Below are positions 2,207 to 57,612 of a stretch of 64,000 nt of DNA, piece by piece (position 1 is the first letter of the stretch; every line of letters begins with the position of its first letter). Source of the DNA: Escherichia coli (GTDB lineage: Bacteria; Pseudomonadota; Gammaproteobacteria; Enterobacterales; Enterobacteriaceae); the NCBI RefSeq assembly GCF_044647545.1, contig NZ_CP172818.1; one strand, 5' to 3'. The notes beneath the pieces are model-generated. The model was not told the DNA's origin and did no database searches. It saw nothing but the letters and a program-made list of their open reading frames with translations. The position numbers and the translations under genes are program-made.

Positions 2207-3094
2207 TTAATTTATATCTAATTCTTTTATTTTGCTCTCTTTGCGTACTGTCAGCGTAGAACCCATTGAAGCGGCGATGATAGCGCCGAGCGCCAGCAGC
2301 TGTATGGGTGTCAGTGTTTCTCCGAGGAAAATCATCCCGGAAACGGCAGCCAGCGCAGGTTCCATGCTCATTAGCGTACCAAATGTGCGTGTTGGCAAAC
2401 GGGTGAGGGCAATCATTTCCAGCGAATAAGGCAGAGCGGTCGAGAGAATAGCGACCGCCAGACCCAATGGAATAACCGACCAGTGCCAGAGTGCTTCACC
2501 AGCCTGAAGCGCTCCAATTGGCACGAAAATTAACGCTGCAATCAACGAACCAATTGCCACCGTCGCAGGGCCATGTTCCGCTCCTGCGCGTTGCCCACTT
2601 AAAATGTAAATAGCCCAACAAGCCCCGGCGCCCAGAGCCAGCGCACAGCCGGTTAAATCGACATGGGAAACGTCTTGCCCCAGCGGTAGCAGGAACCACA
2701 GACCAAGAACCGCCAGAACAACCCAGACGAAATCTACCGGGCGACGAGAAGAGAACAGCGCCACCGCCAGTGGTCCGGTGAACTCCAGCGCCACCGCAAT
2801 ACCCAGCGGTACCGTCTGAATAGAAAGATAAAAAAGATAATTCATCCCCCCCAGCGAAACGCCGTAAAACAACAGCGGTAACCGCTGCTCTTTGGCAAAG
2901 CGCAGTCGCCATGGCTTAAAGAACGCGATGAGGATCAGCGTGCCTAATGCCAGACGCAGCGCAGTGACCCCCGGTGCGCCCACCAGAGGAAAAAGTGACT
3001 TAGCTAACGAGGCTCCACTCTGAATAGACGCCATGGCAACGAGCAATATGACTATTGGTAACCAGACCGGCATTTTACGTAATGAACCAGGCAT
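2207..3094 (-). CDS. rhtA: Threonine/homoserine exporter (DMT/EamA family)
   Basis: ORF 2207..3106; the recognised RhtA N-terminus MPGSLRKMPVWLPIV begins at the ATG at 3094; 10-TM EamA-type protein. Confidence 0.9.
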   Translation of the reverse strand: MPGSLRKMPVWLPIVILLVAMASIQSGASLAKSLFPLVGAPGVTALRLALGTLILIAFFKPWRLRFAKEQRLPLLFYGVSLGGMNYLFYLSIQTVPLGIAVALEFTGPLAVALFSSRRPVDFVWVVLAVLGLWFLLPLGQDVSHVDLTGCALALGAGACWAIYILSGQRAGAEHGPATVAIGSLIAALIFVPIGALQAGEALWHWSVIPLGLAVAILSTALPYSLEMIALTRLPTRTFGTLMSMEPALAAVSGMIFLGETLTPIQLLALGAIIAASMGSTLTVRKESKIKELDIN

Positions 3095-3446
3095 CCTTTC
3101 TCCCACAAATATCTAAACCTAAGTAAAGCGTGGAGTGTACTGGATATACCCAATGCTGGTTGAGCATTTGTTGAAAAAATTTTCCCCCGTTTTGACTAAA
3201 ATGCGCCAGGATTGATGGAATCATTAGTCTGGTGATTAGGAATAATCTGGATGAATGACAGGGAAAACATGCGTAATACTTACGCAGTTCTCTGAAAAAG
3301 TGATTTAAATTTAGATGGATAGCGGTGTATGGAAACGTTCTGTTACATGAAATGGCCCGTTAGACATCACAAATCGCGAAGAGTTTCCCATTAATTTTTG
3401 ATATATTTAAAACTTAGGACTTATTTGAATCACATTTGAGGTGGTT

Positions 3447-16208: not shown

Positions 16209-18641
16209 TTACAGCATATGTTCAGTACGGGCGATGATATCGTCCTGAGCGTCTGGAGAGAGCGCGGTGAAGAAGGCGGAATAGCCCGCGACACGCACTA
16301 CCAGATCGCGGTACTGATCCGGATGTTTTTTCGCTTCCAGCAGCGTTTCGCGGGAAACGATGTTGTACTGAATATGCCAGCCTTTATGCACTTCAAAGAA
16401 GGTGCGTAGCAGGATCATCAGTTTCTGCTTGTCAGATTCGTTCTCCAGCGTTGCCGGATTCAGTTTCTGGTTGAGCAACACGCCGCCGAGAATCGCGGCC
16501 GTAGGCAGTTTACCCACCGAGCCAATGACCGCAGTAGGGCCAAGATGATCAGTACCGGAGGCCGGACTAGCTCCTTCTGCCAGCGGGGTATGCGCTTTAC
16601 GTCCGTCCGGCGTTGCCATCGTCTGCGCGCCAAAGGGTACGTTAGCGGAGATAGATGACGTACCCGCGTAATAATTGCCGCCAACCGGACCACGACCATA
16701 GCGCGGGTTATGGTACTGTTTTAGTTCGTCGATATAGGTCTGATAAGCGCGAGCCAGCAGCGTATCGACAGTATCATCGTCGTTGCCGTACTTAGGCGCA
16801 CCGTTAATCAGCCGCTGACGCAGCTGCTCGTGAGTCAGGCCGTCGAAGTCATCCGCCAGTGCGGCAGCCAGCTGTTGCTGACCAATCGCGCCCTGTTCAA
16901 ATACCAGTTTCTTCACTGCCGCCAGGCTGTTGCCGAGGTTAGCAATGCCGACCTGCAGGCCAGAAACCCAGTCATATTTCGCGCCGCCTTGCTTGATACT
17001 TTTCGCTCGCTCAATACAGTCATCCACCAGCGCCGAGCAGAGAATATCGTGTACGTTCTCTTCCAGCATGGTGTCGACGACATATTCGATTTCGATTGAT
17101 TTACGCGTGTAGTAACGGATTTGCGTATCCCATGCGTCCATTACTTCATCGAAGTTGTTGAAGTTACCCGCTGACAACGCTTTTTCTTGTGGCAGGAACA
17201 CTTTGCCGCTGGTGGCATCACGACCGCCTTCCAGCGCCGCCAGCATCACGCGGGCGAAGTTGATAAAGCTCATGCCGGTACAGCGATAGCCCCATTTGCC
17301 ACCGACGGCGGTTTCGATACAACCAATCGCTGCGTAGTCGTAAGCGTCCTGCGGTTCAATACCGAGTTTAATAAATTCCGGGATGACGATTTCATCGTTG
17401 TTGAACGCCGGCATCCCGAAACCACAGCGGATCACCTGAACACAGGCATCGAGGAAATCGTTACTCATACCCGCATGGTAACGCACGCTGAGGTTAGGCT
17501 GAGTCGAACGCAGGCGACCGCAGGATTCGAGGATCGCATAAGAGAGTGGATTTACCGCGTCCATCGGTTGACCATCAACCAGATTTTGCCCGCCAATGGT
17601 GACGTTCTGATACAGCGGACTTCCCGCAGAGGCTTTTGAGTGTGAGCCGGAGCGGATTTTGTTCACTTCCAGCAATTTCAACCAGCAGCTATGCAGCATC
17701 TCGATGGCGTGTTCGCGATCCAGTGTCTGGTTCAGTTCAACGTCACGGCGATAGTATGGATAGAGATACTGGTCCATACGACCAAAAGATACTGAGTGAC
17801 CGTTAGATTCGATCTGCAATATCAACTGGATGAAGTAACACAGTTGCAGCGCCTGCCAGAAAGTCTGCGGCGGTTGGTGGGCGATAAGATCGCAGTTTTC
17901 TGCCATCGCCAGCAGTTCATCGCGACGGCTTTCGCGGGTTTCGGTCGTGGCCATTTCACGCGCCAGGGCAGCGAAACGTTCAATGTGTTCACTGACTGCC
18001 ACCAGCACGATATCAATCGCTTTCAGGAATTGCTCGCCGTGCAGATCTTCCAGTACCGTCAGATTGATGCGCGAGCGACGTTCCGCCACTTTCTCACGCA
18101 GACCATCAAGCCCTTTTTCCAGCAGTAGCGGGAAATTCACCGCCAGGTGCGCATCGCCGGAGGTCATATTGCCCTCCGCTTTAATGATGCCGGTCGCCAG
18201 CAGACCTTTTTGCTCATCGGTAAACATGCCGTAGCAGCGATCCTGTACCGTCTGACCGCGCCACCACGGGCACACTTCATGCAGAACACGTTTGTTCTCC
18301 TCGCTCACCGCAAAACCAGCACCCGGACGATCTGCCAGATCATCAATCTCTTTTTCGATCCACGAGACGGTATATTCCGGGAAGATCGGCGCGGCGCGAA
18401 CCTCGCTTGCCTGGTTGCCGATGATCAACTCATCGTGCTTGATCCAGATGGTGCGATTCGCCAGGTGATGCGCCAGTGCCAGCGCGCGACGTACCGGGAT
18501 CGGCTTATCGAGATGTTGTTGATACATCTCGGTATAGTGCTGCGCGCGCTCGGTACAGACTGGTGGTTTCACAATATGCACCAGCGCATTTTTGTGCGCT
18601 TTAATGCGGTCGCTGAGCGTGTCCAGTTTCAGTGTGGTCAT
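16209..18641 (-). CDS. ybiW: Glycyl radical enzyme, pyruvate formate-lyase-like, substrate unknown
   Basis: 810-aa ORF with a C-terminal glycyl-radical motif (...VVRVAGYSAFF...) and a PFL-like fold; matches YbiW. Confidence 0.9.
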   Translation of the reverse strand: MTTLKLDTLSDRIKAHKNALVHIVKPPVCTERAQHYTEMYQQHLDKPIPVRRALALAHHLANRTIWIKHDELIIGNQASEVRAAPIFPEYTVSWIEKEIDDLADRPGAGFAVSEENKRVLHEVCPWWRGQTVQDRCYGMFTDEQKGLLATGIIKAEGNMTSGDAHLAVNFPLLLEKGLDGLREKVAERRSRINLTVLEDLHGEQFLKAIDIVLVAVSEHIERFAALAREMATTETRESRRDELLAMAENCDLIAHQPPQTFWQALQLCYFIQLILQIESNGHSVSFGRMDQYLYPYYRRDVELNQTLDREHAIEMLHSCWLKLLEVNKIRSGSHSKASAGSPLYQNVTIGGQNLVDGQPMDAVNPLSYAILESCGRLRSTQPNLSVRYHAGMSNDFLDACVQVIRCGFGMPAFNNDEIVIPEFIKLGIEPQDAYDYAAIGCIETAVGGKWGYRCTGMSFINFARVMLAALEGGRDATSGKVFLPQEKALSAGNFNNFDEVMDAWDTQIRYYTRKSIEIEYVVDTMLEENVHDILCSALVDDCIERAKSIKQGGAKYDWVSGLQVGIANLGNSLAAVKKLVFEQGAIGQQQLAAALADDFDGLTHEQLRQRLINGAPKYGNDDDTVDTLLARAYQTYIDELKQYHNPRYGRGPVGGNYYAGTSSISANVPFGAQTMATPDGRKAHTPLAEGASPASGTDHLGPTAVIGSVGKLPTAAILGGVLLNQKLNPATLENESDKQKLMILLRTFFEVHKGWHIQYNIVSRETLLEAKKHPDQYRDLVVRVAGYSAFFTALSPDAQDDIIARTEHML

Positions 18642-37475: not shown

Positions 37476-37721
37476 ACTCACCCCTTTTCCGACAGGCAGC
37501 CACAGGCTGAACAGGACTTTGATGGTGAAGTAAAGTTAACTTTTAAGCAACAGCTGGCAAAAAAATGACAACAGAAGCAGCGAAGCGGCAGGATATTGCA
37601 TAAACTTTAAAAACTTTACCAACTTACGGTTTCTTTAAGTTTGTGTGTGCGTTATTAATCACCGAACTTATCATACGGCGATATAACGTATTTTTTTTGA
37701 ATGGATACTCGGGTGGCATTT

Positions 37722-38924
37722 ATGACGCAATACTCCTCTCTCCTTCGTGGTCTTGCAGCGGGTTCTGCATTTTTATTCCTTTTTGCCCCAACGGCATTCG
37801 CGGCCGAACAAACCGTTGAAGCGCCGAGCGTGGATGCGCGTGCATGGATTTTAATGGATTACGCCAGCGGTAAAGTGCTGGCAGAAGGCAATGCGGATGA
37901 GAAACTGGATCCCGCGAGCCTGACTAAAATCATGACCAGCTATGTGGTTGGGCAGGCGCTTAAGGCCGATAAGATTAAACTCACCGATATGGTGACGGTC
38001 GGTAAAGATGCCTGGGCGACGGGAAATCCGGCACTGCGTGGTTCATCGGTAATGTTCCTCAAACCGGGCGATCAGGTTTCGGTGGCAGACTTGAACAAAG
38101 GTGTGATTATCCAGTCCGGTAATGACGCCTGTATTGCGCTGGCCGATTACGTTGCCGGGAGCCAGGAGTCATTTATTGGTTTGATGAATGGTTATGCCAA
38201 AAAACTGGGTCTGACCAACACTACCTTCCAGACGGTGCACGGTCTGGATGCGCCGGGGCAGTTCAGTACCGCGCGCGATATGGCATTGCTGGGTAAAGCA
38301 TTAATCCACGATGTGCCGGAAGAGTATGCCATTCATAAAGAGAAAGAGTTCACCTTCAACAAAATTCGTCAGCCTAACCGTAACCGTCTGCTGTGGAGCA
38401 GCAATCTGAATGTTGATGGCATGAAGACAGGAACCACTGCAGGCGCGGGATATAATCTGGTTGCTTCGGCTACCCAGGGTGATATGCGTTTAATCTCCGT
38501 AGTGCTGGGGGCGAAAACTGACCGTATCCGTTTTAATGAGTCTGAGAAATTATTGACCTGGGGTTTCCGCTTCTTTGAAACCGTGACGCCAATTAAACCT
38601 GATGCCACCTTTGTGACTCAGCGCGTCTGGTTTGGTGATAAGAGCGAAGTGAATCTCGGGGCAGGCGAAGCGGGCTCAGTGACCATACCGCGTGGGCAGC
38701 TGAAAAACCTGAAAGCGAGCTACACGTTAACGGAACCGCAGCTTACCGCACCGCTGAAAAAAGGTCAGGTTGTCGGGACCATTGATTTCCAGCTTAACGG
38801 TAAATCCATTGAGCAGCGTCCGCTGATCGTGATGGAAAATGTGGAAGAGGGCGGATTCTTTGGTCGGATGTGGGATTTCGTGATGATGAAATTCCATCAG
38901 TGGTTCGGCAGCTGGTTCTCTTAA
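37722..38924 (+). CDS. dacC: D-alanyl-D-alanine carboxypeptidase PBP6
   Basis: ORF 37701..38924; the recognised start is [14 protein letters not shown] at 37722; signal peptide and the SxxK active-site motif (SLTKIM) are present. Confidence 0.95.
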
Positions 38925-38970
38925 TTTTGTGATAACCGGATGGCGCGAAACGTCATCCGGTTATACGTCA

Positions 38971-39729
38971 TTAATACATCAACTTAATACGCTGCGTCTG
39001 CGCGTACTTCACATACTCATCTTCCGGGCAACAATCGCTCACTACAATATCAAAGCGTTTCAGGTCACCCATGCGTGCCGGACGCACCTTGCCAAATTTA
39101 CTGTGGTCGACAACCAGCACATGCTTTTGCGCCATCGACATGGCCCAGTGTTTTACCGGCAACTCTTCAAGATTAAAACAGGTAGCGCCCTTACTGACAT
39201 GCACCCCCGCCGCGGAATAAAAAGCGATATCCGGGCAAAAATTATTCAGCGTTTGCTGAAAATCGATGGGTTTGAAAATGGCGTTGCTGGCGTGAAATTC
39301 ACCACCGCAAAGAAACGCGCGGCAATGAGGTTTCTCTTTCAGTGCCAGAAAGGTATTTAGCGAATAACAAACGGCGGTGAAAGGGATTTCATTATCAATC
39401 GCTTCAATAATCCACGGTGTGGTGGTGCCACAGTCAAAAAAGAGGGTCTGATCGGGTTCTACCAGCGTCGCAGCCAGTTTTGCCGCCCGGCGTTTTTCTT
39501 CCACCAGGCGGGATTTTTGATCGCTTAGCAGGTAATGGCTGGCGCTGCGCGGTTCCAGAACAATATAGCCGCCGAGCAAAACGACGGGCGCACTGTGGTT
39601 GTTCAGATCGCGACGAATCGTCATCTCCGAAACCCCAAGCAGGGCGGCGGCGTCTTTAAGATGTAACTTATCGCTGCGTTTTAATTCTTGCAGCAGCTGC
39701 CCGATACGCTCTTCGCGACGTGTTTCCAT
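38971..39729 (-). CDS. deoR: DeoR transcriptional repressor of the deo operon
   Basis: 252-aa ORF with an N-terminal HTH and a DeoR-type C-terminal domain; matches DeoR. Confidence 0.95.
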   Translation of the reverse strand: METRREERIGQLLQELKRSDKLHLKDAAALLGVSEMTIRRDLNNHSAPVVLLGGYIVLEPRSASHYLLSDQKSRLVEEKRRAAKLAATLVEPDQTLFFDCGTTTPWIIEAIDNEIPFTAVCYSLNTFLALKEKPHCRAFLCGGEFHASNAIFKPIDFQQTLNNFCPDIAFYSAAGVHVSKGATCFNLEELPVKHWAMSMAQKHVLVVDHSKFGKVRPARMGDLKRFDIVVSDCCPEDEYVKYAQTQRIKLMY

Positions 39730-41900: not shown

Positions 41901-41940
41901 AAAAATGCCTGATTGCTTTGTGCGATCAGGCATTCTCAAA

Positions 41941-57574: not shown

Positions 57575-57612
57575 GTAGGCCGGATAAGGCGTCCACGCCG
57601 CATCCGGCATCA
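57575..57612. repeat. REP (repetitive extragenic palindromic) element
   Basis: tgtaggccggataaggcgtccacgccgcatccggcatc: the classic E. coli REP palindrome (GCCGGATAAGGCG...CGCCGCATCCGGC) in the artJ-artM intergenic region. Confidence 0.8.

Follow-up and report, generated by a model that had tools for sequence, protein, structure and literature searches.

Rho-dependent transcripts can have precise steady-state ends located just past stable, U-poor stem-loops. In the cases described by Dar and Sorek (2018), rut sites lie just downstream, and PNPase and RNase II trim the RNA back to the stem. A different group of hairpins, the REPs of Escherichia coli (types y, z1 and z2), measure 30-40 nt, form imperfect palindromes, carry a conserved GTAG on their 5' side and number 584 in K-12; the GTAG and a two-base mismatch in the stem are needed for binding and cleavage by the REP transposase (Ton-Hoang et al. 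2012). Here, we report an analysis of the hairpin between the convergent genes dacC and deoR of E. coli, within a stretch of 64,000 nucleotides that we refer to as the window. This hairpin is not new: it has been catalogued before, under the name REP81 and also among bidirectional terminators, as the place where both mRNAs end.

The genes and the parts of the hairpin are arranged as follows, in window coordinates, to which 843005 is added to obtain the MG1655 coordinate:

37701-38924, + strand: dacC, taken as its longest open reading frame in the window
38922-38924, + strand: stop codon TAA of dacC, from the sequence
38932-38964, transcribed on both strands: the whole hairpin, with a 14-bp stem and a 5-nt loop, from the sequence, the fold and the inverted repeat
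38932-38945: 5' arm of the hairpin on the + strand, ATAACCGGATGGCG, from the fold and the inverted repeat
38946-38950: loop of the hairpin, CGAAA, from the fold
38951-38964: 3' arm of the hairpin on the + strand, CGTCATCCGGTTAT, from the fold and the inverted repeat
38971-38973, - strand: stop codon TAA of deoR, from the sequence
38971-39729, - strand: deoR, an open reading frame convergent with dacC

The longest dacC reading frame (407 codons) starts 21 nt, or 7 codons (37701-37721), upstream of the annotated K-12 start (400 codons); the additional codons probably reflect just an in-frame ATG upstream.

The original prediction placed a hairpin in the 46-bp gap between the two stop codons (38925-38970), and the sequence quoted there is indeed found at that place. 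The pairing of the 9-bp stem proposed at the time is real, but its length was understated, the stem comprising 14 bp, including one G.U, around the 5-nt loop. Eleven perfect pairs (ATAACCGGATG / CATCCGGTTAT) are followed by the G.U and then by two G-C pairs; on the other strand, the G.U of the + strand stem becomes an A.C mismatch. The folding energy, suggested as a check, turned out to be strong, and weak stability was not seen: the 46-nt gap folds at -23.1 kcal/mol as + RNA (dacC sense) and at -19.8 kcal/mol as - RNA (deoR sense), compared with -10.0 (sd 2.6) and -8.3 (sd 2.3), respectively, for shuffled gaps (z = -5.1 and -4.9); in 200 shuffles, no fold as stable was obtained. Inverted repeats of at least 11 nt with copies no more than 40 nt apart number only 17 in the whole 64-kb window, the hairpin among them. 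In MG1655 the hairpin is identical, the difference being confined to the 5' flank (TCTTCTGAT versus TTTTGTGAT). Among complete E. coli genomes, 5,424 of 5,426 match the region 38600-39300 with 95-100% identity; the hairpin is present in these, and the matched region is annotated as dacC and deoR. A scan against 4,227 Rfam families at E<=10 gave no match at the hairpin, and the site was not called in a scan with sigma-70 promoter and terminator consensus patterns.

The hairpin is listed as REP81, at MG1655 881941-881967 between convergent deoR and dacC, in the tables that supplement Harris et al. 2026 (bioRxiv 10.64898/2026.03.23.713779), of which Table 16 re-uses a SEnd-seq list of 306 overlapping bidirectional terminators (its reference 47). 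The row of that list that covers our locus, entry 58, names the genes ybjG:dacC:deoR, in both log and stationary phase, and gives a transcript overlap at 881931-881972 (42 nt), a fold of -22.5 kcal/mol, a 14-bp stem, a 5-nt loop, and the flanks AUCUUCUG on the 5' side, with 1 A, and ACGUCAUU on the 3' side, with 3 U; the 3' ends in this row are 881972 (+) and 881931 (-). The two convergent transcripts, then, have 3' ends that overlap across the hairpin in the gap. We take the list of 306 to be that of Ju, Li and Liu 2019.

A second data set, the TRS analysis of RNAtag-seq (Nat Commun 2023, PMC10687069), contains a 'Primary dacC' terminus at 881968-881976 on the + strand, with a peak at 881973, and, in the sheet 'LB RNAtag-seq', a 'Primary deoR' terminus at 881926-881937 on the - strand, with a peak at 881930. 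The latter has a signal of 0.58, a longest U run of 2, and adjusted p values of 1, 0.008 and 9e-10 in three libraries, that is, the deoR end is significant in only two of the three. The mapped features are:

38936-38962 (MG1655 881941-881967): REP81, from the tables of Harris et al. 2026, which use the MG1655 annotation
38967-38968 (MG1655 881972/881973), + strand: 3' end of dacC mRNA at steady state, 3-4 nt past the stem, from SEnd-seq and TRS
38925-38926 (MG1655 881931/881930), - strand: 3' end of ybjG-deoR mRNA at steady state, 6-7 nt past the stem, from SEnd-seq and TRS

Mapping of 3' ends was the other check suggested for the original prediction, and published SEnd-seq and RNAtag-seq ends lie at 881972/881973 (+) and 881931/881930 (-). 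Two published data sets that are independent of each other agree that, on both strands, a stable, U-poor stem-loop is followed by a precise 3' end at steady state. Because the mapped ends are located at 38967-38968 on the + strand and at 38925-38926 on the - strand, each mRNA crosses the entire gap, and the hairpin is its terminal stem-loop.

Two additional features of these catalogues concern neighboring sites. Supplementary Data 4 of the TRS study (PMC10687069) includes a published transcription start site at MG1655 882017 (window ~39012, - strand), 41 nt inside the 3' end of deoR and within 150 nt of the deoR 3' terminus; together with the end at 881930, it would delimit an RNA of ~88 nt that ends in the hairpin, a possible 3'-derived small RNA. 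Between mdfA and ybjH, the inverted repeat AATGCCTGATTGC / GCGATCAGGCATT (window 41904-41934) corresponds to entry 59 (884903-884942) of the bidirectional-terminator list that has our locus as entry 58. Its arms resemble those of z-type REPs, with 10.9 bits (E ~0.7) under our REP covariance model, and it has no REP name in the published table.

The GC-rich stem-loop of an intrinsic terminator is present between dacC and deoR, and the original prediction noted that no clear U-tract follows, an observation borne out here. There is no U-rich tract after the stem on either strand, and a consensus scan for at least 5 T in 8 nt calls neither; the tails are ACGUCAUU (+) and CACAAAAU (- strand, window sequence), the longest U run is 2, and, in the SEnd-seq-derived row for this site, the 8 nt after the stem contain 3 U on the + RNA and 1 on the - RNA. 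Intrinsic terminators usually have their 3' end 7-9 nt from the stem. Weak, factor-assisted intrinsic termination would mean that the stable hairpin, perhaps with NusA or NusG, frees part of the polymerases a few nucleotides past the stem although the U-tract is poor. The stability of the stem is on a par with that of intrinsic terminator stems, the - strand end lies 6-7 nt after it, and the + tail ACGUCAUU includes its 3 U, all of which would suit such a mechanism; with U runs of at most 2, no call by the terminator scan, a + strand end only 3-4 nt from the stem, nearer than is usual, and read-through that is sensitive to Rho, as described below, we consider it improbable.

Several published data sets point to Rho at this locus. 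In vitro Rho-binding (rut) peaks on the - strand extend over 881808-881939 without NusG (log10 enrichment 1.57) and over 881796-881939 with NusG (log10 enrichment 1.36) (Harris et al. 2026, 10.64898/2026.03.23.713779). Following deoR transcription, the peaks start 2 bp past REP81; they are antisense to the 3' end of dacC and overlap a bicyclomycin-sensitive transcript, 880712-882009, that the tables of Harris et al. 2026 attribute to Peters et al. 2012. The same tables hold no + strand Rho-binding peak near REP81. Sequence with C in excess over G, as in rut sites, follows the hairpin in both directions, with published in vitro Rho binding on the - strand only:

38791-38934, - strand: C-rich, G-poor stretch downstream for deoR transcripts, antisense to the 3' end of dacC, coinciding with the rut peaks 881796/881808-881939
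38965-39044, + strand: C-rich, G-poor stretch downstream for dacC transcripts, antisense to the 3' end of deoR, a putative rut-like region

The - RNA from 38911 to 38832 contains 29 C and 9 G, which is the 99.7th percentile of all 80-nt windows, and the + RNA 38965-39044 contains 25 C and 11 G (98.7th percentile).

Adams et al. 2021 (eLife, PMC7815308, Supplementary file 2) compared DirectRNA-seq in the presence and absence of bicyclomycin and report regions of Rho termination on the two strands. The + strand region, antisense to deoR, has its maximum at 882572 (window ~39567; score 7.2, p 2.7e-11), where upstream/downstream reads change from 99/16 to 61/71 with bicyclomycin. The - strand region, antisense to dacC, has its maximum at 881569 (score 9.1, p 4e-17), where reads change from 96/12 to 239/272. 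Resolution is coarse, the + strand maximum lying ~600 nt downstream and deriving from 800-nt windows. Within that resolution, read-through increases when Rho is inhibited, and coverage across the region becomes roughly flat in the published DirectRNA-seq tables, which argues that the hairpin alone does not stop most polymerases.

The missing U-tract and the Rho data for the locus together lead us to regard the hairpin as an end-defining, stabilizing stem-loop with Rho acting downstream; it is not a classical intrinsic terminator. The suggestion of a shared terminator or RNA-stability element in the original prediction is supported by the 3' ends that flank the hairpin on both strands in two data sets and by the strong fold, with the refinement that this terminator is not of the classical kind. 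We favor Rho release followed by trimming because the locus shows the pattern of Dar and Sorek 2018, and think it probable, with some reserve, that the shared stem-loop defines and protects the 3' ends of both dacC (+) and ybjG-deoR (-) mRNAs, with Rho releasing transcripts downstream and exonucleases trimming them back. Transcription of each mRNA runs across all 46 bp of the gap, so that the two RNAs overlap by ~42 nt and each end in the same palindrome as a stem-loop. Polymerases that pass the hairpin would enter the antisense strand of the partner gene, which would yield untranslated, C-rich, G-poor RNA; Rho would load on this antisense stretch and release the polymerases within a few hundred nucleotides. 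The 3'-to-5' exonucleases PNPase and RNase II would then trim the tails to the foot of the stem, where they would be blocked, stabilizing both mRNAs.

This mechanism is supported by the structure, by its conservation through compensatory changes (see below), by the mapped 3' ends, by in vitro Rho binding on the deoR strand and by bicyclomycin sensitivity on both strands. We infer the trimming by exonucleases at the dacC-deoR locus, as well as the share of termination that is due to Rho as against pausing or collision at the hairpin. Against Rho release and trimming stand the absence of any dacC or deoR row from the 3' ends curated from Term-seq by Adams et al. 2021 (PMC7815308), the significance of the TRS deoR end in no more than two of three libraries, the lack of a + strand Rho-binding peak near REP81, the coarseness of the + strand bicyclomycin maximum, and the view of the group that catalogued the hairpin, which holds this class of bidirectional terminators to be independent of Rho.

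That view corresponds to the main rival explanation, RNA polymerase collision. Here, the hairpin would pause polymerases arriving from both sides, resulting in head-on meetings at a fixed point in the gap; trailing polymerases would push the complexes off, Rho would be unneeded, and the mapped ends would be true termination points. In single-molecule work on another terminator of this type, the place of collision was set by the hairpin and the complexes were released when several polymerases collided, with no effect of Rho in that assay. Since the dacC-deoR site belongs to that laboratory's list, the model applies to it by construction: as entry 58 of the 306 listed, the site has the 42-nt overlap, the 14-bp stem and the few flanking A/U of an overlapping bidirectional terminator, and was seen in log and stationary phase. 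However, inhibition of Rho lifts far-downstream coverage on both strands to approximately the upstream level, which argues that most polymerases are not halted by the hairpin and collisions without further help. In vitro, Rho binding to the RNA is seen 2 bp past the hairpin, and the bicyclomycin-sensitive transcript covers the site. Furthermore, dacC and deoR are modestly expressed, so that convergent and trailing polymerases should seldom be present at the same time. On the bicyclomycin and Rho-binding data, collision may contribute but is not favored as the main route, and we consider it rather unlikely as the principal explanation. Release by Rho and subsequent trimming thus remains our preferred reading.

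The identity of the hairpin as a REP is a separate matter. It is annotated as REP81 in curated MG1655 data, and it is an extragenic palindrome of 33 nt in the 46-bp gap, within the 30-40 nt of REPs. There is no GTAG at its foot, where GTAT is found on the - strand and TGAT on the + strand, and the two-base mismatch (AA/GC bubble) is absent from its stem, which contains only the single G.U or A.C. A query of 86 nt (E<=10) found the hairpin at a median of one place per genome across the 5,424 E. coli genomes. For comparison with the family, we searched 214 kb of E. coli sequence and collected 48 canonical REPs, 26 of them distinct; all 48 begin with GTAG, although the harvest pattern itself demanded it. 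A profile HMM of the 26 distinct REPs, which does find degenerate REPs, did not match the hairpin even at E<=1000, and a REP covariance model gave 8.7 bits (E ~2.8) and 8.0 bits (E ~4.3) for the two strands, compared with the 57.2 bits of the canonical REP at 57575-57609 of the window. Orthologues from Citrobacter, which are slightly more REP-like, score at most 6.9 bits. A close likeness of the - strand (GTAT followed by AACCGGATGACG...CGCCATCCGGTT) to the y-type REP consensus was considered and rejected on these HMM and covariance results; what the hairpin shares with REPs is the arm core, CCGGAT...ATCCGG. Thus, the hairpin is a REP by annotation and a poor one by the defining features of the family. 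It may plausibly be a decayed REP.

The RefSeq feature table of MG1655 (NC_000913.3) has no feature in the gap. This table contains no REP repeat_region anywhere, although the sequence clearly contains REPs, such as the one between lspA and fkpB; because it lists no REPs at all, a missing row is uninformative and is not evidence of absence. Elsewhere in the window, the canonical REP at 57575-57609 is y-type, with GTAG and 1 mismatch to the consensus, and a degenerate REP-like hairpin is found at 16734-16770 (12.8 bits, E 0.19).

A single listed record, that of E. coli strain 7CC (NZ_CM137006.1), has two matches to the 86-nt query; there, a copy of IS200C (locus L086, 2540-3290, with tnpA at 2705-3163) is inserted at the 3' foot of the hairpin, between CATCCGGTTA and TTGTGCACAG, that is, between the hairpin and the deoR stop codon (window ~38964). 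The choice of this target may not be due to chance because the IS200/IS605 transposases are related to the REP transposase.

If the palindrome functioned at the level of DNA, as a site of binding or cleavage for TnpA-REP, DNA gyrase or IHF, or as a mobile repeat, its effects on RNA would be incidental. The REP81 annotation, the arms CCGGAT...ATCCGG, which are those of y-type REPs, the true REPs with CTAC in the same gap of Enterobacter, Leclercia and relatives, and the IS200C copy exactly at the hairpin foot in one strain are all compatible with such a role. Conversely, the GTAG and stem mismatch that TnpA-REP needs for binding and cleavage are missing, the hairpin is a single copy that REP profile and covariance models score no better than chance, and compensatory changes in a freely varying primary sequence fit a structural role, not recognition by a protein. 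A DNA-level role is therefore very improbable in our estimation. An operator for DeoR or another regulator was likewise dropped as a candidate: the hairpin does not resemble the DeoR operator palindrome, and the sequence varies freely while the pairing stays.

These compensatory changes became apparent on comparison across Enterobacteriaceae, where dacC and deoR are convergent neighbors in 79 of the 80 loci retrieved. The gaps of Escherichia, Citrobacter and Salmonella contain an alignable hairpin. In an alignment of 28 sequences from these genera, 87% of cells are paired and 7 of the 14 pairs change on both sides; the covariation score was reached by none of 500 column shuffles, and slid registers scored far lower. 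Other genera have a different U-less hairpin at the junction; in Klebsiella, Raoultella and Kosakonia, an unrelated GC hairpin extends up to the deoR stop codon or overlaps it, and Enterobacter, Leclercia and relatives carry the true REPs with CTAC. In Kluyvera and some others, the gap is only 0-17 nt and contains no intergenic hairpin. Most of these short-gap lineages form a hairpin of -24 to -34 kcal/mol (44 nt) located ~35-45 nt inside the 3' coding end of deoR, in the codons for ..IASD..PDDELVALAK.. (L049, L051-L053, L055, L056, L058, L060 and L079, with gaps of 0-9 nt). The homologous segment of E. coli folds at only -8 to -16 kcal/mol. In the short-gap genera, the 3' hairpin thus seems to have shifted into the coding sequence of deoR. 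At the dacC-deoR junction, structure, not sequence, appears to be kept, and the pattern across genera suggests selection for a 3' hairpin at the junction, not for a particular sequence.

A broader evolutionary reading can be offered tentatively, and with doubt outweighing conviction: the hairpin might be a decayed REP that lost GTAG and bubble, features recognized by its transposase, while its structure alone was retained from the ancestor shared by Escherichia, Citrobacter and Salmonella onward, serving as a fixed module at the end of both mRNAs. Lineages without a gap would have needed such a hairpin strongly enough to rebuild it inside the deoR coding sequence. Beyond correct annotation, the locus matters little. 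It is nevertheless a clean, well-documented example of one palindrome that provides the 3' end of two convergent mRNAs and, with Rho release plus trimming and polymerase collision predicting different outcomes here, it could be a convenient test locus.

Compared with the known systems, the dacC-deoR hairpin resembles canonical bidirectional intrinsic terminators in the GC-rich stem-loop common to two convergent genes, but these have A-tract/U-tract flanks, whereas our hairpin lacks both (1 A and 3 U in the 8-nt flanks). With the overlapping bidirectional terminators (Ju, Li and Liu 2019; Wang et al. 2022), it shares the convergent gene pair, the 42-nt overlap centered on the hairpin and the scarcity of flanking A/U; those terminators are said to be Rho-independent and driven by collision, whereas this locus has a Rho-binding site and bicyclomycin sensitivity. 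Like REPs, it is extragenic, situated between convergent genes as are ~60% of REPs, and a GC-rich palindrome of ~33 nt with y-type arms; REPs have been described as terminators and stabilizers in 3' UTRs, partly Rho-dependent, and 78 of them sit in bidirectional terminators. It differs from REPs in having no GTAG at the foot and no two-base mismatch, in being present in a single copy, and in its covariance score (8.7 versus 57.2 bits). In the class of Dar and Sorek 2018 (Peters et al. 2012 as cited there), as at dacC-deoR, a stable, U-less stem-loop is followed by a precise 3' end, with rut-like sequence of C in excess over G downstream and bicyclomycin-sensitive read-through; at dacC-deoR the dependence on exonucleases is putative and, unlike in that class, one palindrome serves both strands.
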